Below, piece after piece: positions 43,684-55,567 of a stretch of 64,000 nucleotides of DNA. Location: NCBI RefSeq assembly GCF_965641715.1, contig NZ_OZ282453.1; one strand, given 5' to 3'. The stretch comes from Escherichia coli. Lineage in GTDB: Bacteria > Pseudomonadota > Gammaproteobacteria > Enterobacterales > Enterobacteriaceae. Position 1 is the first letter of the stretch. Each line of letters opens with the position of its first letter. The position numbers and the translations under genes were made by a program. Below the pieces are notes generated by a model that saw only the letters and a program-made list of their open reading frames with translations, made no database searches and was not told the origin of the DNA.

Positions 43684-45717
43684 TTATTTCACCTGATGAC
43701 CCGGTTTAGCACCAGCATCCGGGCTTAGCAGGAAAATATCTTTCCCGCCAGGACCGGCAGCCATCACCATGCCTTCGGAGATACCGAAGCGCATTTTACG
43801 TGGTGCCAGGTTAGCCACCATAATGGTGTGACGACCAATCAGTACCTGCGGATCCGGGTAAGCAGAACGAATGCCAGAGAAGACATTGCGTTTTTCACCG
43901 CCGAGATCCAGCGTCAGGCGCAGCAGTTTGTCAGAACCTTCAACAAACTCTGCGTTTTCAATCAGCGCCACGCGCAGGTCAACTTTAGCGAAGTCGTCAA
44001 AGGTGATGGTTTCCTGAATCGGATCATCTGCCAGCGGGCCAGTTACCGGCGCGGCAGCTGCTTTCACTTCTTCTTTAGACGCTTCCACCAGTGCTTCAAC
44101 CTGCTTCATATCTATGCGGTTATACAGCGCCTTGAACGGATTCACTTTATGGCCCAGCAGCGGTTGCTGGATACCATCCCAGGTCAGTTCCGTATTCAGG
44201 AATGCTTCTGCGCGCTCGGTCAGTTTCGGCAGTACCGGCTTCAGGTAAGTCATCAGCACGCGGAACAGGTTTATGCCCATCGAGCAAATTGCCTGCAGGT
44301 CAGCATCGCGGCCTTCCTGTTTCGCCACCACCCACGGAGCCTGTTCATCGACATAGCGGTTAGCCAGATCAGCCAGCGCCATGATTTCGCGCACTGCTTT
44401 ACCAAATTCGCGGCTTTCCCACGCTTCACCAATCACTTCAGCGGCATCAGTGAAGGTTTTGTACAACTGCGGGTCAGCCAGTTCGCTTGCCAGCACGCCG
44501 TCAAAACGCTTGTTGATAAAGCCCGCATTACGAGAGGCCAGGTTAACCACTTTGTTAACGATATCGGCATTCACGCGCTGAACGAAATCTTCCAGGTTGA
44601 GATCGATATCATCAATGCGCGAAGAGAGTTTCGCAGTGTAGTAGTAACGCAGGCTGTCGGCGTCAAAATGATTCAGCCAGGTGCTGGCCTTAATAAAGGT
44701 GCCACGAGACTTAGACATCTTCGCGCCATTCACCGTCACATAGCCGTGAACAAACAGGTTGGTCGGCTTGCGGAAGTTGCTGCCTTCCAACATGGCAGGC
44801 CAGAACAGACTGTGGAAGTAAACGATGTCTTTGCCGATGAAGTGATACAGCTCAGCGGTGGAATCTTTCTTCCAGTATTCATCGAAGTTTACAGTGTCGC
44901 CGCGCTTGTCGCACAGATTCTTGAAAGAACCCATGTAGCCAATCGGTGCGTCCAGCCAGACGTAGAAGTATTTGCCCGGCGCGTTCGGAATTTCGAAACC
45001 GAAGTACGGTGCATCTCGGGAGATATCCCACTGTTGCAGGCCGGATTCAAACCATTCCTGCATTTTGTTGGCCACCTGCTCCTGCAACGCGCCGCTGCGA
45101 GTCCATGCCTGCAACATTTCGCTGAAAGAGGGCAGATCAAAGAAGAAGTGTTCGGAATCACGCATTACCGGCGTAGCGCCAGAAACCACCGATTTTGGTT
45201 CGATCAATTCAGTCGGGCTATATGTTGCGCCGCAGACTTCACAGTTATCGCCGTATTGATCCGGCGATTTACATTTCGGGCAGGTACCTTTCACAAAACG
45301 GTCCGGCAGGAACATGCCTTTTTCCGGATCGTACAGTTGAGAGATGGTGCGGTTTTTAATAAAACCGTTCTCTTTCAGGCGGCTGTATATAAGCTCCGAC
45401 AGCTGACGGTTCTCTTCGCTGTGCGTAGAGTGGTAATTGTCGTAGCTGATGTTAAAGCCTGCGAAATCAGTCTGATGTTCCTGACTCATTTCGCCAATCA
45501 TCTGCTCCGGGGTGATACCAAGCTGCTGAGCTTTCAGCATGATTGGCGTACCGTGGGCATCGTCGGCGCAGATGAAGTTGACTTCGTGGCCGCGCATTCG
45601 CTGGTAACGGACCCAGACATCAGCCTGGATGTGCTCCAGCATATGGCCGAGGTGGATTGAGCCGTTGGCGTACGGCAGTGCGCACGTTACCAGAATTTTC
45701 TTCGCGACTTGAGTCAT
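43684..45717 (-). CDS. metG: methionyl-tRNA synthetase
   Basis: start at [26 protein letters not shown] (HIGH-type motif), KMSKS present, zinc knuckle CPKCKS..CEVCG. Confidence 0.95.
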
Positions 45718-45884
45718 AGTAGGCATTACTTCTTTGTAGTGAAAAGGGCTTAGATAGTACCAAATGGGGCATGGTTACGTAAGTCCTGTGCAAGCATCTT
45801 ATGATGCATTATTAGGTAAGTACTTAGCTGTTAACTTCAGGTAAACTAATAGCGATAAGTTATCTTTATAAATAAGGAGTCGGG

Positions 45885-46994
45885 ATGAACGAACAATCCC
45901 AGGCCAAATCACCAGAAGCCTTGCGCGCAATGGTCGCCGGGACACTGGCCAATTTTCAGCACCCAACCCTGAAGCATAACCTCACCACGCTGAAAGCGTT
46001 GCACCATGTCGCCTGGATGGACGACACGTTGCATGTGGAACTGGTTATGCCATTCGTCTGGCATAGCGCGTTTGAAGAGTTAAAAGAGCAATGTAGCGCC
46101 GAACTGCTGCGTATCACCGGGGCGAAAGCTATCGACTGGAAACTGTCGCACAATATCGCCACCTTAAAACGCGTGAAGAATCAGCCGGGTATTAATGGCG
46201 TGAAGAACATCATTGCGGTCAGTTCCGGTAAAGGCGGCGTGGGTAAATCCTCCACGGCGGTAAACCTGGCGCTGGCACTGGCGGCGGAAGGGGCGAAAGT
46301 CGGTATTCTGGACGCCGATATCTACGGCCCATCAATTCCCACCATGCTGGGCGCAGAAAATCAGCGTCCAACTTCGCCGGACGGTACCCATATGGCACCG
46401 ATTATGTCTCATGGCCTGGCAACCAATTCAATTGGTTATCTGGTCACTGACGACAATGCGATGGTGTGGCGTGGACCGATGGCGAGCAAGGCGTTAATGC
46501 AGATGTTGCAGGAAACCTTGTGGCCGGATCTCGACTATCTGGTGCTTGATATGCCGCCAGGCACCGGTGACATTCAATTGACGCTGGCGCAGAACATTCC
46601 GGTAACTGGTGCAGTCGTGGTCACCACCCCGCAGGACATCGCGTTGATCGATGCGAAAAAAGGCATTGTGATGTTCGAGAAAGTCGAGGTTCCGGTGCTC
46701 GGTATTGTCGAGAACATGAGTGTGCATATTTGTAGTAACTGTGGTCACCATGAACCGATTTTCGGTACCGGTGGTGCAGAGAAACTGGCTGAAAAATACC
46801 ATACACAGCTGCTGGGGCAGATGCCGTTACACATCTCCTTACGTGAGGATCTCGATAAAGGCACGCCAACGGTTATCAGCCGTCCGGAGAGCGAATTTAC
46901 CGCTATCTACCGCCAGCTGGCTGACCGCGTTGCAGCTCAGCTCTACTGGCAGGGTGAAGTTATTCCAGGCGAGATTTCCTTCCGCGCGGTCTAA
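45885..46994 (+). CDS. apbC: Fe-S cluster carrier ATPase ApbC/Mrp
   Basis: 369 aa; P-loop SGKGGVGKSS; CxxC motif (CSNCGH). Confidence 0.93.
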   Translation: MNEQSQAKSPEALRAMVAGTLANFQHPTLKHNLTTLKALHHVAWMDDTLHVELVMPFVWHSAFEELKEQCSAELLRITGAKAIDWKLSHNIATLKRVKNQPGINGVKNIIAVSSGKGGVGKSSTAVNLALALAAEGAKVGILDADIYGPSIPTMLGAENQRPTSPDGTHMAPIMSHGLATNSIGYLVTDDNAMVWRGPMASKALMQMLQETLWPDLDYLVLDMPPGTGDIQLTLAQNIPVTGAVVVTTPQDIALIDAKKGIVMFEKVEVPVLGIVENMSVHICSNCGHHEPIFGTGGAEKLAEKYHTQLLGQMPLHISLREDLDKGTPTVISRPESEFTAIYRQLADRVAAQLYWQGEVIPGEISFRAV

Positions 46995-47022
46995 CGCCTA
47001 TTAACCATTCTGGTTATTCTTC

Positions 47023-47066
47023 ATACACCGCAGAGATGTTACATTGATGCGGTGTATTTGTTTTTG
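47023..47066 (+). terminator. intrinsic terminator after apbC
   Basis: 10-bp inverted repeat ATACACCGCA / TGCGGTGTAT followed by TTGTTTTTG. Confidence 0.7.
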
Positions 47067-47255
47067 CCGCATTAATGAACACTTATTTAATACTGCGAAT
47101 ATTCAGTGGATCTTAGTCCGAAACTGTACAAAGGCGATTGATTGTGCAACCACTGTCTCTTTATCATCCCTCGTGGCTGTGTAGCGGATGTACAGCTATA
47201 GTGTGTTATGCACTCAATCTACCCGGCATAACCTTTACTACAGGGATAACGTTCA

Positions 47256-47537
47256 ATGAATAAGTATTGGTTGTCAGGAGCTGTTTTTCTTGCTTATGGA
47301 CTAGCATCACCCGCGTTCTCTTCTGATACTGCAACATTAACCATCAATGGCAGAATTAGTTCCCCTACATGCAGTATGGATGTTGTTAATAATCATCTTC
47401 AGCAACGTTGTGGGCAGTTGTTACAACGAGTTGAAACCAACTATCGTGCTTCTTCTACTGCAAAAGGCGTTACGACAGAAGTGGTAGCTGTGGGTAATAA
47501 CGACAAACGCAAAATCGTGTTAAATCGCTACGATTAA
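47256..47537 (+). CDS. yehE: small secreted protein YehE
   Basis: 93 aa with signal peptide, upstream of the fimbrial genes. Confidence 0.8.
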   Translation: MNKYWLSGAVFLAYGLASPAFSSDTATLTINGRISSPTCSMDVVNNHLQQRCGQLLQRVETNYRASSTAKGVTTEVVAVGNNDKRKIVLNRYD

Positions 47538-47566
47538 TTTGCCAACACCGTTTTAAGCATATTTAA

Positions 47567-47608
47567 AAAGCCAAAATCATTCCTATGAATGATTTTGGCT
47601 TTTTTATT
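47567..47608 (+). terminator. intrinsic terminator after yehE
   Basis: 15-bp inverted repeat AAGCCAAAATCATTC / GAATGATTTTGGCTT followed by TTTTTT. Confidence 0.75.
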
Positions 47609-47828
47609 CATCCCATAAATGTTATTTACGGTAATTTACGGTAATTAATCAGTTTCAAAAATGTTTGTTATAGCGAATTATTTGTTGTATTTATATCGCA
47701 TTAGTTAATTTGTTTTAAATCAACAAAACAATATGTTTACATTGCGGCAACCTTTTTGATGTGAGAAATTTGTTTCCAAGAGATACAGACTCTTAACAAA
47801 ACAAAATAAACTTATTAAGGAATGCATC

Positions 47829-48371
47829 ATGAAACATTCAATTATTGCTGTCGCTGTCTTATCTTCTGTATTTATGAGTGCTGGTATTTTCGCTGCTGAA
47901 GTAGATACCGGAACTTTAACCATTAAAGGTAATATTGCTGAATCACCATGTACATTTGTCGCTGGCGGTGATTCAGTCAGTATTAATATGCCGACTGTAC
48001 CCACCACTGTATTTGATGGAAAAGCGAAATATTCAACTTATGATGGCGCGGTTGGTGTAACCAGCAGTATGCTGAAAATTACTTGTCCGAAGACTATTGA
48101 TGGCGTAAAACTTTCGTTGATCACCAACGAGAAAATTCTTGGTAATGATAAGGCAATATCCAGTAGTAATGACACAGTTGGATACTATCTCTATTTGGGA
48201 GATAGCAGTGACGTACTGGATATTTCCGCACCATTTAATATTGAAAGTTATAAAACTGCTGATGGACAATATGCAATACCGTTTAAGGCAAAATATCTGA
48301 AGTTGACTGACAGTGGTGTTGCATCTGGTACTGTTAACTCTTCATTGGTTATGCGTGTTGCCCAGGATTAA
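47829..48371 (+). CDS. yehD: fimbrial major subunit YehD
   Basis: 180 aa with signal peptide and fimbrial subunit fold, AT-rich upstream region. Confidence 0.9.
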   Translation: MKHSIIAVAVLSSVFMSAGIFAAEVDTGTLTIKGNIAESPCTFVAGGDSVSINMPTVPTTVFDGKAKYSTYDGAVGVTSSMLKITCPKTIDGVKLSLITNEKILGNDKAISSSNDTVGYYLYLGDSSDVLDISAPFNIESYKTADGQYAIPFKAKYLKLTDSGVASGTVNSSLVMRVAQD

Positions 48372-48411
48372 ATATTTAAAATAATCATCTTGTTTTTTCA
48401 GTAAGTTAAAA

Positions 48412-48435
48412 TGGCCGCCATATTCATGGCGGCCA
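48412..48435 (+). promoter_or_regulatory. intercistronic stem-loop between pilin and chaperone genes
   Basis: perfect 10-bp inverted repeat TGGCCGCCAT-attc-ATGGCGGCCA with no T-run. Confidence 0.5.
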
Positions 48436-48458
48436 GCATAAATATAAGAGGCATTAAG

Positions 48459-49133
48459 ATGAAAGGGTTATTATCTTTACTCATCTCTTCTATGATATTC
48501 CCCGTGCATGCCGGAATGGTTATTTTCGGGACCCGTATCATTTACCCGGCAGAGCAGAAAGAGGTCATGGTACAACTGATGAATCAGGGAAACCGCTCTT
48601 CGCTGATGCAGGCGTGGATTGATGATGGCGACACGTCTCTGCCGCCAGAAAAGATTCAGGTTCCTTTCATGTTAACGCCACCAGTAGTGAAAGTAGCGGC
48701 CAATTCTGGGCAACAAATAAAAATTAAAATCATGCCTAATAAATTACCCAGTAATAAGGAAAGTATTTTTTATCTTAATGTTCTGGATATTCCACCGAAT
48801 AGCCCAGAAGATGAAGGAAAGAATGCGTTAAAATTTGCCATGCAAAACAGAATCAAGTTGTTTTACCGACCTGCTGGTATTGCTCCGGTAAATAAAACGA
48901 CTTTTAAAAAATTACGAGTGAGTCGTAGCGGTAATAACGTAGTCATAAAAAATGACTCGCCAAATTGGGTAACGATTTCTGATGTTAAGGCTAATAACGT
49001 CAAAGTGAATTATGAAACAATCATGATTGCACCACATGAAAGTCAGAATGTTAGTGTAAAAAATAATAATGCGAATAGCTGGCAACTGACCATTATCGAT
49101 GACCACGGCAACTATATTAGTGACAAAATTTAA
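48459..49133 (+). CDS. yehC: periplasmic fimbrial chaperone YehC
   Basis: start at MKGLLSLL with AAGAGG RBS; PapD-like chaperone. Confidence 0.9.
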   Translation: MKGLLSLLISSMIFPVHAGMVIFGTRIIYPAEQKEVMVQLMNQGNRSSLMQAWIDDGDTSLPPEKIQVPFMLTPPVVKVAANSGQQIKIKIMPNKLPSNKESIFYLNVLDIPPNSPEDEGKNALKFAMQNRIKLFYRPAGIAPVNKTTFKKLRVSRSGNNVVIKNDSPNWVTISDVKANNVKVNYETIMIAPHESQNVSVKNNNANSWQLTIIDDHGNYISDKI

Positions 49134-49148
49134 TTGCAGGAGCTGCCT

Positions 49149-51629
49149 ATGTTGAGAATGACCCCACTTGCATCAGCAATAGTCGCGTTATTGCTCGGCA
49201 TTGAAGCACATGCAGCAGAAGAAACCTTTGACACCCATTTTATGATGGGAGGAATGAAAGGTGAGCAAGTAACAAATTTGCGTCTTGATGATAATCAGCC
49301 TTTACCTGGGCAGTACGACATTGATATTTATGTCAATAAACAATGGCGTGGAAAATATGAGATTATCGTCAAAGATAACCCACATGAAACTTGCCTGACG
49401 CGTGAAATTGTAAAGCGGTTAGGTATAAATAGCGATAATTTTGCACGCGAAAATCAGTGTTTAACATTTGAGCAACTTGTTCAGGGCGGAAGCTACTCCT
49501 GGGATATTGGGATTTTTCGTTTGGATCTCGCTGTTCCGCAAGCCTGGGTCGAAGAGCTGGAAAATGGTTACGTTCCGCCAGTAAACTGGGAGCGGGGAAT
49601 CAATGCGTTTTATACGTCTTATTACGTAAGTCAGTATTACAGTGACTATAAAGCCTCGGGCAATAGTAAGAGCACTTATGTGCGTTTTAACAGTGGGCTA
49701 AATTTGCTGGGATGGCAGCTGCATTCAGATGCCAGTTTTAGCAAAACGGATAATAATCCTGGTGAGTGGAAAAGCAACACACTGTTTCTGGAGCATGGAT
49801 TTTCTCAAATTCTCGGTGCGCTGCGTATTGGTGATATGTACACCTCATCCGATATATTTGATTCCGTTCGCTTCACCGGGGTTCGGTTATTTCGTGATAT
49901 GCAGATGTTGCCAAACTCGAAGCAAAATTTTACCCCACGGGTACAGGGGATTGCCCAGAGTAACGCGTTGGTAACTATTGAACAGAACGGTTTTGTCGTT
50001 TATCAGAAAGAGGTTCCACCAGGTCCGTTTTCGATTAGTGATTTGCAGTTAGCGGGCGGAGGGGCGGATCTTGATGTTAGTGTTAAGGAAGCCGATGGTT
50101 CTGTGACTACGTATCTGGTGCCTTATGCGGCAGTACCTAATATGCTGCAACCAGGTGTATCAAAATATGATTTTGCGGCAGGCCGTAGTCATATTGAAGG
50201 TGCGAGCAAGCAAAGTGATTTTGTCCAGGTCGGTTATCAGTATGGTTTTAATAATTTATTGACGCTGTATGGCGGCACGATGGTTGCTAATAATTACTAT
50301 GCCTTTACCCTCGGAACAGGTTGGAACACGCGTATTGGCGCAATTTCAGTCGATGCAACTAAATCGCACAGTAAGCAAGACAATGGTGATGTGTTTGACG
50401 GACAAAGTTATCAAATTGCCTATAACAAATTTTTGAGCCAAACATCAACACGTTTTGGTCTGGCGGCCTGGCGTTATTCGTCGCGTGATTACCGCACATT
50501 TAACGATTATGTGTGGGCAAATAATAAAGATAATTATCGTCGTGATAAAAACGATGTCTATGATATTGCCGATTATTACCAGAATGATTTTGGTCGCAAA
50601 AATAGCTTTTCCGCCAATATGAGTCAGTCATTGCCAGAAGGCTGGGGATCTGTGTCATTAAGTACTTTATGGCGTGATTACTGGGGGCGAAGCGGCAGTA
50701 GTAAAGATTATCAACTGAGTTATTCCAATAACTGGCGGCGGATAAGCTATACCCTCGCGGCAAGCCAGGCGTATGACGAGAACCACGCCGAAGAGAAACG
50801 CTTTAATATTTTTATATCGATTCCCTTTGACTGGGGCGATGACGTTACGACGCCGCGGCGGCAAATATATATGTCTAACTCAACGACCTTTGATGATCAG
50901 GGTTTTGCTTCAAACAATACCGGATTATCGGGAACCGTTGGGAACCGCGATCAGTTTAACTATGGTATCAACTTGAGCCATCAACATCAGGGAAATGAAA
51001 CGACAGCTGGGGCCAATTTGACCTGGACCGCACCGGCCGCAACAGTGAATGGCAGCTATAGTCAGTCGAGTACTTATCGACAGGTCGGAGCCAGTGTTTC
51101 AGGGGGACTGGTTGCCTGGTCTGGTGGCGTTAATCTGGCGAACCGTCTTTCCGAAACGTTTGCAGTGATGCATGCGCCGGGAATCAAAGATGCTTATGTC
51201 AATGGGCAAAAATATCGCACAACAAACCGTAATGGTGTGGTGGTGTACGACGGACTGACACCTTATCGGGAAAATCACCTGATGATGGATGTGTCGCAAA
51301 GCGATAGCGAAACAGAATTACGCGGGAATCGTAAAATGACCGCCCCTTATCGCGGCGCGGTCGTTCTGGTTGATTTTGATACCGATCAGCGTAAGCCCTG
51401 GTTTATAAAAGCATTAAGATCCGATGGACAGCCATTAACGTTTGGTTATGAAGTCAATGATATGCATGGTCATAACATTGGTGTTGTCGGCCAGGGCAGT
51501 CAGATATTTATTCGCACCAATGAAATACCGCCAGCGGTTAATGTGGCAATTGATAAGCAACAAGGGCTTTCATGCACAATCACCTTCGGTAAAGAGATTG
51601 ATGAAAGTAAAAATTATATCTGTCGGTGA
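49149..51629 (+). CDS. yehB: outer-membrane fimbrial usher YehB
   Basis: 826 aa from MLRMTPLAS; usher family. Confidence 0.9.
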   Translation: MLRMTPLASAIVALLLGIEAHAAEETFDTHFMMGGMKGEQVTNLRLDDNQPLPGQYDIDIYVNKQWRGKYEIIVKDNPHETCLTREIVKRLGINSDNFARENQCLTFEQLVQGGSYSWDIGIFRLDLAVPQAWVEELENGYVPPVNWERGINAFYTSYYVSQYYSDYKASGNSKSTYVRFNSGLNLLGWQLHSDASFSKTDNNPGEWKSNTLFLEHGFSQILGALRIGDMYTSSDIFDSVRFTGVRLFRDMQMLPNSKQNFTPRVQGIAQSNALVTIEQNGFVVYQKEVPPGPFSISDLQLAGGGADLDVSVKEADGSVTTYLVPYAAVPNMLQPGVSKYDFAAGRSHIEGASKQSDFVQVGYQYGFNNLLTLYGGTMVANNYYAFTLGTGWNTRIGAISVDATKSHSKQDNGDVFDGQSYQIAYNKFLSQTSTRFGLAAWRYSSRDYRTFNDYVWANNKDNYRRDKNDVYDIADYYQNDFGRKNSFSANMSQSLPEGWGSVSLSTLWRDYWGRSGSSKDYQLSYSNNWRRISYTLAASQAYDENHAEEKRFNIFISIPFDWGDDVTTPRRQIYMSNSTTFDDQGFASNNTGLSGTVGNRDQFNYGINLSHQHQGNETTAGANLTWTAPAATVNGSYSQSSTYRQVGASVSGGLVAWSGGVNLANRLSETFAVMHAPGIKDAYVNGQKYRTTNRNGVVVYDGLTPYRENHLMMDVSQSDSETELRGNRKMTAPYRGAVVLVDFDTDQRKPWFIKALRSDGQPLTFGYEVNDMHGHNIGVVGQGSQIFIRTNEIPPAVNVAIDKQQGLSCTITFGKEIDESKNYICR

Positions 51630-51639
51630 GAGGTGAAAT

Positions 51640-52674
51640 ATGATGTTCAGAAATGCAATATTACTAATATTTATATTGTGGGCTAATTTTACCTGGGCTG
51701 GATGTCGTACTACTGCATCATTAAATATTACTGATAGTATTAATGTTGGGGGGATTTTAGCGAATGAAACTTCCTTTAGTAAAAGTGTCGTGTTTACTGG
51801 GATATCTTGTGATACGAGCACGGATAAAATAGTTTATAAAAATATCCAAAGTGATTGGGTTGAAGTTGGGCCTTTTGGTAATGGCGAAAAATTAAAGGTT
51901 AAAATAGAGTCTTTAGGTAAAACCAGCGACACGATTGGGAAATCCAGCAATGCGCAGGCAGTATTACCCTATGTGGTTAAAATAGCCAGAGGTACACCTG
52001 ATTTTACTGGAGAAAGAAAATCTACCTGGTTTATTTCAGATACCGTGATTGCAAATATTGGCGGTGAGTCATCGTCATCCATCGACTTTTGGTTGGGTAT
52101 TTGTAAGGCATTGAAGTTTAACTGGTGTGTGAATTATCTCACCAGCAAACTGGCGGGGGATACTTTTACGCTTGGGTTAAGTATTTCCTATTATCCTAAA
52201 AATACGACCTGTAAGCCTGAAAACACAGTTATAAAAGTAGATGATATCGCCTTGTCCCAGCTCAGAAATCAGGGAAAGATTGCGGCGAACAGTAAGGAAG
52301 GAACAATTACGTTGAAATGTGATAATCTTTTCGGCGACAAAAAACAAGCATCGCGGAATATGGTTGTATATCTTTCTAGCAGTGACTTAGTTAAAGGAAG
52401 TAATACTATTTTGCGTGGTAAAACAGATAATGGTGTAGGGTTTGTGTTGGATCTAACAGAACCACCAAAAGGGACTGAGGCTGCCATTAAAATTTCGGCC
52501 AACGGCGATCAGGGCGCGGCGACATCATTATGGAAAACAGATAAACCAGGAGTTTCATTAAATAGCAACATTATTAATATACCTGTCATGGCCAGTTACT
52601 ATGTATATGATGAAAAAAAAGTTAAATCTGGCGTACTGGAGGCAACCGCATTAATCAACGTGAAATACGACTAA
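51640..52674 (+). CDS. yehA: fimbrial adhesin-like protein YehA
   Basis: 344 aa with signal peptide, last gene of the chaperone-usher operon. Confidence 0.88.
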   Translation: MMFRNAILLIFILWANFTWAGCRTTASLNITDSINVGGILANETSFSKSVVFTGISCDTSTDKIVYKNIQSDWVEVGPFGNGEKLKVKIESLGKTSDTIGKSSNAQAVLPYVVKIARGTPDFTGERKSTWFISDTVIANIGGESSSSIDFWLGICKALKFNWCVNYLTSKLAGDTFTLGLSISYYPKNTTCKPENTVIKVDDIALSQLRNQGKIAANSKEGTITLKCDNLFGDKKQASRNMVVYLSSSDLVKGSNTILRGKTDNGVGFVLDLTEPPKGTEAAIKISANGDQGAATSLWKTDKPGVSLNSNIINIPVMASYYVYDEKKVKSGVLEATALINVKYD

Positions 52675-52730
52675 TAACAAGCAAGACGAGCAAGTGGCTA
52701 ATAATAAGAAATAATAAGGTGTCTGCATTT

Positions 52731-52757
52731 CCCCCTCTCTCCGAGGGGGCTTTTTTT
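52731..52757 (+). terminator. intrinsic terminator after yehA
   Basis: CCCCCTC-tctcc-GAGGGGG hairpin followed by TTTTTTT. Confidence 0.8.
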
Positions 52758-53094
52758 AGCGATGATAAAAAATCTCACCGTCGTAGGCTTTAATGATTTT
52801 TCCGTCGGTATTATTGATCAGCACATATGCACCGCCCATATAGGTCCAGTGGGTTCCGGCGTCAGGTGCGGGCAGGTTACGCAACTGCCACTGCTTAATG
52901 TTGTACTCATCGGTACGGTACATCTCTGGTACGGTGTCACCTGGTTTGAAATGCTTGAAGTCAGCAATGAAGCTGCTTAACTCATACTTTGAAATTCCCG
53001 AGGCATTGGTCGAACCCGCGGTGGCTGGTGCGGCCCATGCTGCGCTGGTTACCAGCAAAAGCGCACCCAGCAACATCTTATTTTTTATGGTCAT
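52756..53094 (-). CDS. rcnB: periplasmic nickel/cobalt homeostasis protein RcnB
   Basis: start at MTIKNKMLLGALLL with GGAGAG RBS; 112 aa with signal peptide. Confidence 0.9.
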   Translation of the reverse strand: MTIKNKMLLGALLLVTSAAWAAPATAGSTNASGISKYELSSFIADFKHFKPGDTVPEMYRTDEYNIKQWQLRNLPAPDAGTHWTYMGGAYVLINNTDGKIIKAYDGEIFYHR

Positions 53095-53311
53095 ATACTC
53101 TCCACTTTGGGGATCAGTAAAATCAGTCGCATATCTTTCCCGCCATACAATATAACCGACAAGAGATATTTTGTTAGTGATCCCATGATTTCGTAAAAAG
53201 TGTAAATGAAAGGATGCAGCAAAAGCATCCTCATTGAACGAGAAGTGAACGGAATAAGCTGATTTAAGAATCATCCTGGGCTAAAGGGATAACGAAGCCC
53301 AGGTGATTGTT

Positions 53312-54163
53312 TTATCTCATAATACCCATAAAGCCATGCACTCCCATATACAACCCGACTAAACCAATCAACAGACTGGAAAAATAGGGGGCGCGTTTAG
53401 CGAGAGTGTTAAATCCGCTCCAGCGTTTTGCAACTTGTTGAACACTGATTGCCGCTCCAACGCCTACTGTAACCAGCGTTAATGCCAGGCCGATGCTGAA
53501 ACTGACGACCAGTGTTGCGCCCAGTGTCAGGGCTTTCAACTGAATGCAAATCAACAGCACGGTAATTGCTGCCGGGCAGGGAATAAGGCCACCTGTTAAG
53601 CCAAATAACAAAATTTGCCAGTTGGTGACCTCTCTACCATCAAAGCGTCGTTTAATGTCATTGGCATGGGCTCGTGCATGGGCATCCTGATACTCTTCGT
53701 TGTCGCCATGTTCATGATGGTGATGATGTTCGTGGTCGTGGTCGTGGTCGTGGTCTTGATGATCTTCGTGATCGTGGTGATGATGCTCATGATCATGCTC
53801 GTGCATATTCTCCAGCCAGTTGCGTTCGCCGCGCCAGGTACGCCAGAACATCCAGAACGCGGTGCCAATAATGATCACTGCGGAAATCAACTGGAGCCAC
53901 GGTTCTGCTGATTGAGCAGTAAAGCGCTTGCTGATCACCATCCCGCCAAAGGCAATCAACCAGACCACCGCGGTATGCGAAATGGTTGCTGCCAGTCCGA
54001 GCATCACCGCCTGTTTAGTGGTGCCTTTGATGGCGATGATAAACGCCGCCATCATCGTTTTTGAGTGCCCTGGTTCCAGGCCATGAAGCGCACCAAGTAA
54101 GATGGCGCTGGGGATGAAGAACCAGGCGTTTCCTTGCTGAAGAAGAGTTGTAAATTCGGTCAT
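53312..54163 (-). CDS. rcnA: nickel/cobalt efflux permease RcnA with His-rich loop
   Basis: 283 aa; cytoplasmic loop HEHDHEHHHHDHEDHQDHDHDHDHEHHHHHEH. Confidence 0.93.
   Translation of the reverse strand: MTEFTTLLQQGNAWFFIPSAILLGALHGLEPGHSKTMMAAFIIAIKGTTKQAVMLGLAATISHTAVVWLIAFGGMVISKRFTAQSAEPWLQLISAVIIIGTAFWMFWRTWRGERNWLENMHEHDHEHHHHDHEDHQDHDHDHDHEHHHHHEHGDNEEYQDAHARAHANDIKRRFDGREVTNWQILLFGLTGGLIPCPAAITVLLICIQLKALTLGATLVVSFSIGLALTLVTVGVGAAISVQQVAKRWSGFNTLAKRAPYFSSLLIGLVGLYMGVHGFMGIMR
53732..53755. repeat. hexanucleotide tandem repeat (GTGGTC)x4 inside the rcnA His-rich loop
   Basis: direct reading; encodes alternating His-Asp on the minus strand. Confidence 0.8.
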
Positions 54164-54200: not shown

Positions 54201-54235
54201 TACTCCCCCCCAGTACCTGATACTACCCCCCAGTA
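54201..54235. promoter_or_regulatory. two tandem RcnR operator sites (TACT-C7-AGTA and TACT-AC6-AGTA)
   Basis: matches the TACT-G6-N-AGTA RcnR recognition pattern (reverse strand), in the rcnA-rcnR divergent intergenic region. Confidence 0.85.
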
Positions 54236-54283: not shown

Positions 54284-54556
54284 ATGTCTCATACAATCCG
54301 TGATAAACAGAAACTGAAAGCGCGTGCCAGTAAGATTCAGGGCCAGGTCGTGGCGCTCAAGAAAATGCTCGACGAGCCGCACGAATGCGCTGCAGTTTTA
54401 CAACAGATTGCTGCTATCCGTGGCGCGGTAAACGGTCTGATGCGGGAAGTGATTAAAGGTCATCTGACGGAACACATCGTTCACCAGGGGGATGAGCTAA
54501 AACGTGAAGAAGATCTGGATGTTGTTCTGAAGGTGCTGGATTCATATATCAAATAA
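54284..54556 (+). CDS. rcnR: Ni/Co-responsive repressor RcnR (CsoR/RcnR family)
   Basis: 90 aa, [21 protein letters not shown]. Confidence 0.93.
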
Positions 54557-54644
54557 TTTATTAACGCGATTGTAAAACTGCCGTTTTTCCTCGTTTACAA
54601 CGGGTGCGCTGGACATTACCATCCTCCTCTGCGATTTATCATCG

Positions 54645-54778
54645 CAACCAAACGACTCGGGGTGCCCTTCTACGTGAAGGCTGAGAAATACCCGTATCAC
54701 CTGATCTGGATAATGCCAGCGTAGGGAAGTCACGGACCACCAGGTCATTGCTTCTTCACGTTATGGCAGGAGCAAACT
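54645..54778 (+). ncRNA. TPP riboswitch (THI-box) leader of thiMD
   Basis: conserved THI-box CTGAGA...ACCTGATCTGGATAATGCCAGCGTAGGGAA; expression platform overlaps the thiM RBS GGCAGGAG. Confidence 0.9.
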
Positions 54779-55567
54779 ATGCAAGTCGACCTGCTGAGTT
54801 CCGCGCAATCTGCGCACGCGTTACACCTTTTTCACCAACATTCCCCTCTTGTGCATTGCATGACCAATGATGTGGTGCAAACCTTTACTGCCAATACCTT
54901 GCTGGCGCTCGGTGCATCGCCAGCGATGGTTATCGAAACCGAAGAGGCCAGTCAGTTTGCGGCTATCGCCAGTGCCTTGTTGATTAACGTTGGCACGCTG
55001 ACGCAGCCACGCGCACAGGCGATGCGTGCCGCCGTTGAGCAAGCAAAAAGCTCTCAAACCCCCTGGACGCTTGATCCAGTAGCGGTTGGTGCGCTCGATT
55101 ATCGTCGCCATTTTTGTCATGAACTTTTATCTTTTAAACCGGCAGCGATACGTGGTAATGCTTCGGAAATCATGGCATTAGCTGGCGTTGCTACTGGCGG
55201 ACGGGGAGTGGATACCACTGACGCGGCAGCTAATGCGATACCCGCTGCACAAACACTGGCACGGGAAACTGGCGCAATCTTCGTGGTCACTGGCGAGGTG
55301 GATTATGTTACCGATGGTCGTCGCACCGTTGGCATTCACGGCGGCGATCCGTTAATGGCCAAAGTGGTAGGAACTGGCTGTGCATTATCGGCAGTTGTCG
55401 CTGCCTGCTGTGCGTTACCAGGCGATATGCTGGAAAATGTCGCATCTGCCTGTCACTGGATGAAACAAGCCGGAGAACGCGCAGTCGCCAGAAGCGAGGG
55501 GCCAGGCAGTTTTGTTCCACATTTCCTTGATGCGCTCTGGCAATTGACGCAGGAGGTGCAGGCATGA
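54779..55567 (+). CDS. thiM: hydroxyethylthiazole kinase
   Basis: 262 aa, immediately after the TPP riboswitch. Confidence 0.93.

Follow-up and report, generated by a model that had tools for sequence, protein, structure and literature searches.

A variable-number hexanucleotide repeat in the histidine-rich loop of Escherichia coli RcnA corresponds to a known typing locus

The rcnA gene and its neighbourhood

The window, that is, the whole 64-kb stretch of Escherichia coli DNA analysed here (64,000 nucleotides), contains the nickel and cobalt efflux gene rcnA together with rcnR and rcnB (Table 1). The rcnA product matched the Pfam NicO family PF03824 over profile positions 1 to 285 of 287, with an E-value of 2.3e-70 and 237.6 bits (cut-off 27.7). 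NCBI lists the identical 283-residue protein under the name E. coli RcnA, with 25 contigs encoding it, and of 5426 complete E. coli genomes 5365 have the homologous place annotated as rcnA by RefSeq. Judged by its sequence, the window gene is thus a full-length member of the RcnA/NicO exporter family, and export of Ni and Co by this allele is predicted. The gene order rcnR-rcnA-rcnB was found in the window together with two intergenic TACT-G6-N-AGTA motifs, which we take to be putative RcnR operators on the basis of the motif in the RcnR literature. A search of solved structures with RcnA gave only spurious matches to His-rich proteins and no NicO structure.

The central part of RcnA is a loop whose 37-residue core contains 19 His, 8 Asp and 6 Glu. 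Hydrophobic segments bracket the loop, ending at about residue 108 and restarting at about residue 184, and stretches rich in Arg and Lys flank it. By the positive-inside rule, this arrangement suggests that the loop is cytoplasmic, a location that has also been predicted for it elsewhere (PMC11247825).

Table 1. Features of the rcnA locus in the window and the basis on which each was assigned
Feature	Position	Strand	Basis
rcnB, accessory periplasmic protein, downstream of rcnA	52756..53094	-	PF11776
rcnA, Ni/Co efflux protein, NicO family	53312..54163	-	ORF of 283 aa, Pfam match
PulseNet VNTR-19 reverse primer site	53575..53601	+	exact, 27 of 29 bases searched
His/Asp/Glu-rich loop core, codons 120-156	53696..53806	-	composition and hydropathy
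Third indel, 9 nt GACAACGAA = Asp-Asn-Glu, codons 154-156	53696..53704	-	codon alignment
Degenerate array containing the pure tract, period 18, 4.2 copies, 70% matches	53708..53782	-	Tandem Repeats Finder
Perfect (GACCAC)x4 = (Asp-His)x4, rcnA codons 137-144, variable-number repeat	53732..53755	-	exact 24-mer
Second in-frame indel, 12 nt CAT GAT CAT GAG, codons 123-126	53786..53797	-	codon alignment
PulseNet VNTR-19 forward primer site	53846..53881	-	36 nt, 2 mismatches
Two TACT-G6-N-AGTA motifs, rcnA-rcnR intergenic	54201..54235	-	2 matches, 0 expected by chance
rcnR, Ni/Co-responsive repressor, divergent from rcnA	54284..54556	+	PF02583, E = 3.5e-21

A pure (GACCAC)4 tract in the loop

The initial annotation of this DNA had described a (GTGGTC)x4 repeat inside the His/Asp-rich loop of RcnA. 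Tandem Repeats Finder, the exact 24-mer match and the codon positions all agree with that description, GTGGTC being the plus-strand reading of the GACCAC unit. The program reported a repeat at positions 53730-53755 with a period of 6, 4.3 copies and 100% matches, and apart from this tract and the overlapping array with an 18-nt period it found no further tandem repeat with a score of at least 50 in the 64-kb window. The expected number of (GACCAC)x4 24-mers was 0 in 100 dinucleotide-preserving shuffles. The codons of the tract are exclusively GAC and CAC, and the remaining loop favours GAT (3:1) and CAT (10:5). A tract composed purely of GAC and CAC amid a loop that prefers the alternative codons is more readily explained by copying of one unit than by codons chosen independently.

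The same motif is widespread. A scan of species-representative genomes found (GACCAC)n tracts with n of at least 4 at no fewer than 120 places; among the matches listed, 89 of 120 lay in the Asp-His frame of His-rich ORFs and 5 lay in NicO homologues, one of which, from Citrobacter sp. Cu233, is 71% identical to the window protein. Since the motif is common in metal-binding low-complexity regions, an ordinary origin is favoured over a special device.

Copy-number variation among E. coli alleles

The initial annotation had also proposed that 6-nt units are gained and lost in frame, that loop length consequently differs between strains, and that an alignment of rcnA alleles could settle the matter, an invariant loop being evidence to the contrary. 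We aligned 17 rcnA alleles by codon across the loop, and the loop lengths differed. The matched rcnA spans in complete E. coli genomes were 804, 822, 825, 837/840, 846, 849, 852, 858 and 864 bp long, and the sampled gene lengths within this range of 804-864 bp were multiples of 3, with two exceptions. The exceptions are the 851-bp spans in NZ_CP158147.1 (FDN-24) and NZ_CP158140.1 (FDN-9), which we suspect to be sequencing or assembly errors, though they may represent a genuine frameshift. The variation was also evident at the protein level, where the loop, measured between fixed anchors, ranged from 28 to 54 residues in 128 Escherichia RcnA proteins. The flanks around it were 119 and 127 residues long in 93 of these 128 proteins, and the remaining flank lengths are probably due to differences in start and end calling.

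The alleles fell on three loop backgrounds, and within each of them the series differed solely in the number of GACCAC units. Among O157:H7 strains, n was 4 in Sakai, 5 in FDAARGOS_293, 6 in E32511 and 8 in F7508, and these four alleles showed 0 SNPs across the 744 nt outside the loop. They are otherwise identical, which supports the proposed in-frame change by 6-nt units. The background with the HEHDHE loop, to which the window belongs, included n = 2 (OkiPb01695), n = 4 (the window and GDSC2227PM), n = 5 (LSU61) and n = 6 (UTME-3), and alleles with n of 4, 5 and 6 were found on the background with the YGHDHHHH loop. The tract consists of high-purity head-to-tail units whose copy number varies while the flanks are conserved. 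A copy-number series with no flanking SNP, as in O157:H7, means that copy number changes faster than point substitutions accumulate, which is the signature of a variable-number tandem repeat (VNTR).

The frequencies of the individual alleles can be given only approximately, because the 321-nt query around the loop (E-value limit 1e-100) failed to recover some 84 of the 324 genomes with the tract, among them those with the n = 4 and n = 8 alleles. With this query, the n = 6 allele was found in 133 genomes at 99% identity or more. In an even sample of 60 of the 240 matching genomes, 327-bp spans (for which n = 7 was inferred) accounted for 16 and 315-bp spans (n = 5) for 5. The 840-bp allele with n = 4 occurs in at least 32 genomes. 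Alignments with a 103-nt loop-only query slid or broke within the repeat, and this query was used for the presence of the tract-bearing allele (324 genomes) and not for copy number.

Other indels in the loop

Length differences in the loop were also observed at sites other than the pure tract. A 12-nt insertion is present in the window, GDSC2227PM and LSU61 and is absent from Sakai and most O157:H7 alleles; GAGCAT direct repeats flank this site. The 9-nt GACAACGAA segment is found in the tract-bearing alleles and is missing from the K-12-type alleles. The loop shows larger duplications and deletions as well, of 27-54 nt, with duplications of 9-18 codons. In addition, the 804-bp rcnA of IR53017 carries a pure (CACGAG)x4, encoding (His-Glu)x4, at the 5' end of a shortened loop, and this appears from its sequence to be a second microsatellite of independent origin in the rcnA loop.

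Two haplotypes of rcnA

The rcnA of K-12 DH10B is 825 bp long and encodes 274 residues, the K-12 length that the initial annotation had given. The 9-residue difference from the window protein (283 residues) lies entirely in the loop. Reading it as a plain slippage difference, as that annotation implied, is mistaken: the K-12-type allele has no pure tract and differs from the window at 30 of 744 positions outside the loop, so that 283 versus 274 residues is a difference between haplotypes. Within the loop, the two types are separated by an 18-nt block, the separate 9-nt GACAACGAA indel and several substitutions. The window sequence GAT CAT CAA (GAC CAC)x4 GAA corresponds to GAT CAC CAC GAC CAT GGA in CFT073.

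The SNPs outside the loop are unevenly placed: the 5' 360 nt contain 7 of them and the 3' 384 nt contain 23. The divergence from K-12 continues downstream of rcnA. Identity to K-12 was 99.6% for rcnR, 92.5% for rcnA (gaps counted) and 92.3% for rcnB; it was 88% for yehB, 84% for yehC, 80% for yehD and 76% for yehE, and the alignment of yehA was limited to its first 84 nt. The genes yegT-yegX and thiD were 98-99% identical, apbC 97% and metG 96%. The tract-bearing rcnA thus forms the edge of a divergent rcnA-rcnB-yeh block, with the boundary within rcnA itself. The stretch that diverges from K-12 spans window positions 43684-53312 (metG, apbC, yehE-yehA and rcnB) together with the 3' half of rcnA.

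Of 5426 complete genomes, 324, chiefly those of O157:H7 strains, have the tract-bearing allele and block. When 60 rows were sampled evenly down the ranking of the 5365 matching genomes, 51 had the 825-bp length, and mixed codons without a pure tract were seen in the two aligned examples of this length, K-12 and CFT073. The commoner haplotype, which includes K-12, is almost fixed in length and has no pure tract, whereas the window allele has n = 4 and belongs to a divergent haplotype. The two allele classes are old haplotypes and not the product of recent slippage. Pure-tract alleles differ in length even between members of one clone and alleles with mixed codons do not, which indicates that the purity of the repeat, not the His-rich protein, drives the variation.

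Some further observations concern the origin of the window and of its rcnA allele. Over window positions 40000-64000 (24 kb), the best-matching complete genomes were FDN-24 and O157:H7 strains, at only ~97% identity. O157:H7 Sakai and GDSC2227PM carry ~2 kb with three small ORFs between thiM and rcnR (ECs_2908-2910, encoding an HTH-like protein, a hypothetical protein and an outer membrane protein). The corresponding interval of the window (54556-54779) holds only the TPP riboswitch upstream of thiM, as in K-12; the riboswitch lies at 54648-54744 on the plus strand and matched Rfam RF00059 with 71.2 bits. With a K-12-like gap between thiM and rcnR and an O157-like rcnA-yeh block, the window combines both types. 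The RcnA of Escherichia marmotae (275 residues) has the loop MHEHHHHDHEHHHDHDHEHHHHHEHGQSD, which contains (DH)x2 and three inserted residues ahead of EYQ and is closer to that of the tract-bearing E. coli class than to that of the K-12 class. Such a distribution suggests that the tract-bearing form may be old, or may have been exchanged between Escherichia lineages.

Correspondence with typing loci

The initial annotation had left unrecognised that the rcnA repeat is a typing locus. It is in fact a long-known variable repeat, established in outbreak typing, and the observation of its variability is not new. The E. coli O157:H7 locus VNTR-19, which is TR7 of Noller et al. (2003) and O157-19 of Keys et al. 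(2005), is the rcnA locus of the window. The two PulseNet primers that the primer table of PMC8461963 assigns to VNTR-19 bracket the loop and define an amplicon of ~309 bp (53573-53881). TR7/O157-19 is described as having a 6-bp unit and five alleles in 15 isolates, with a diversity index D of 0.65 (PMC3768571), and clade medians of 6-7 repeats have been reported for O157-19 (PMC10062581). In our sample, the modal copy number in O157:H7 was 6, followed by 7, in agreement with the published 6-7. The VNTR-19 typing literature that we found contained no statement placing the locus in rcnA.

The window differs from the VNTR-19 reference in that its strain is not O157:H7 and combines n = 4 with the 12-nt insertion elsewhere in the loop. 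Because this insertion is separate from the tract, the window amplicon with n = 4 would have the size of an O157 amplicon with n = 6, an instance of size homoplasy. Similarly, the O157:H7 strain LSU61 (n = 5 plus 12 nt) would be sized as n = 7. Fragment sizing at VNTR-19 thus merges at least two independent indel sites, the pure tract and the 12-nt site upstream of it, and equal sizes can hide different repeat numbers.

Corresponding loci are known in related genera. The Salmonella locus STTR5 has the unit CACGAC inside yohM, that is, rcnA (PMC1781188, PMC3391293), with 7.3-26.3 copies among five S. Typhimurium strains (PMC3391293); it changes by one unit in laboratory passage, and its allele sizes tend to the mid-range (PMC5183578). 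The gene that harbours STTR5 (Sal16) in Salmonella enterica is the orthologue of the window gene, and its CACGAC unit is the GACCAC of the window in cyclic permutation. Like the window tract, STTR5 is highly polymorphic and codes for His-Asp in the loop that separates the protein halves; the positional orthology of the two repeats within the loop is taken from the literature. Its copy numbers are higher than those of E. coli (7-26 in S. Typhimurium, with a mid-range of 8-14, compared to 2-8). The MLVA scheme for Klebsiella pneumoniae includes locus 27, likewise an in-frame VNTR within rcnA, with 0-19 copies (PMC3948817); its 6-bp unit is CATGGT and encodes another dipeptide. CVN014, one of the generic E. 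coli MLVA loci, was considered as a possible yohM locus, and searching the literature for it gave nothing relevant.

Probable slippage and alternative explanations

We consider the locus to be a coding-region VNTR, in which slippage at the pure (GACCAC)n tract changes the gene in frame and the change is tolerated in a disordered loop of RcnA, and we give this reading a probability of roughly 0.93. At replication, the nascent and template strands would misalign by whole units, and n would shift by one or a few units. The disordered, probably cytoplasmic loop would join the two membrane halves of RcnA and serve as a flexible linker. A two-codon unit leaves the reading frame intact, so the transmembrane helices that follow would be preserved and many lengths could be tolerated. 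Copy number would thus drift faster than point mutations, and this makes the locus useful for outbreak typing. The tract, its polymorphism, the confinement of this polymorphism to the loop and the match with the typing locus are direct observations. We infer slippage as the molecular step from the pattern of alleles together with the published passage experiments in Salmonella, and length would appear to be nearly neutral within the tolerated range. The variation that lies outside the pure tract (the 12-nt, 9-nt and 27-54 nt changes) argues against slippage as the full account.

The strongest competing explanation is that loop-length differences arise mainly through homologous recombination that replaces entire alleles or haplotype blocks, rather than through local slippage. 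The 30 SNPs between the window and K-12, the contrast between rcnB (92.3%) and yehB-yehE (88-76%) on one side and rcnR (99.6%), thiD and yegT-yegX (98-99%) on the other, and the restriction of the tract-bearing allele to 324 of 5426 genomes are all consistent with it. However, recombination is unable to explain O157:H7 alleles with n of 4, 5, 6 and 8 and zero flanking SNPs, nor can it account for the one-unit changes during passage at the Salmonella locus (PMC5183578). As the sole mechanism it is refuted, and what it can still account for is the contrast between the two classes of allele; as the main source of the length differences we regard it as unlikely, though it deserves more weight than the other alternatives.

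Adaptive tuning, in which copy number alters the binding or selectivity of Ni and Co and metal exposure selects among the lengths, appears improbable. The initial annotation had likewise suggested a possible influence of loop length on metal selectivity, for which neither our analysis nor the papers found gave evidence. The repeat does encode metal-ligating Asp-His pairs within the loop of a metal exporter, and GACCAC-encoded (Asp-His)n recurs in His-rich proteins of many bacteria, including at least 5 NicO homologues. The clustering of O157 copy numbers at 6-7 and the tendency of STTR5 alleles to mid-range sizes (PMC5183578) are also in line with such selection. Both Salmonella papers speculate that metal selection, or a functional constraint such as protein stability, limits copy number (PMC3391293, PMC5183578). 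Mutation dynamics alone can, however, give a mid-range bias, and wide ranges are tolerated (2-8 in E. coli, 7-26 in Salmonella). The tract-free, K-12-type length of 825 bp was found in 51 of the 60 sampled rows, and our literature searches yielded no phenotype data, that is, no experiment on RcnA loop length and metal handling. Nickel and cobalt resistance was reportedly defined on a K-12-type rcnA allele, in the work of Rodrigue et al. in 2005. A stronger form, in which the tract is a rapidly evolving in-frame device selected by metals and not a neutral typing marker, with (Asp-His)n copy number setting Ni/Co buffering, the rate of efflux or the preference between Ni and Co in a quantitative manner, seems to us slightly less probable still.

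A further idea is that the repeat merely follows from a low-complexity protein and has no behaviour of its own as DNA: His and Asp have two codons each and the whole loop is built of CAY, GAY and GAR codons, so that short DNA periodicities are expected. It can be dismissed, since all four units use the locally rarer GAC and CAC, and pure-tract alleles vary in length while mixed-codon alleles of a similar protein do not; the copy-number polymorphism refutes it. An artefact of chance or codon composition was rejected on the grounds of the shuffles and codon usage.

On/off phase variation was likewise rejected, because the 6-nt unit lies inside the ORF and the alleles are in frame except in the two 851-bp assemblies. 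The proposed slippage in rcnA resembles that at phase-variable contingency loci, such as those with tetranucleotide repeats in Neisseria and Haemophilus, where slippage is likewise intragenic and generates heritable, reversible variation at a high rate. Contingency loci switch by frameshift, whereas the two-codon unit of rcnA gives no on/off frameshift.

Implications for RcnA

The rcnA repeat has been in routine use as a marker in epidemiology since the early 2000s, and the finding has little further import as it stands. Disordered His-rich cytoplasmic loops between transmembrane helices, varying in length among homologues, are also known in CDF/ZnT and ZIP transporters, which belong to other protein families than the NicO protein RcnA. 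In CDF proteins, changes in the loop alter metal selectivity. For RcnA, the role of the loop in export as opposed to chelation is under question (PMC11247825). The natural series of E. coli alleles, with n from 2 to 8 and few or no SNPs outside the loop, together with the tract-free alleles, provides a ready panel for studying the function of the loop. If tuning were true, the variable and the fixed-length haplotypes of E. coli would reflect different strategies.
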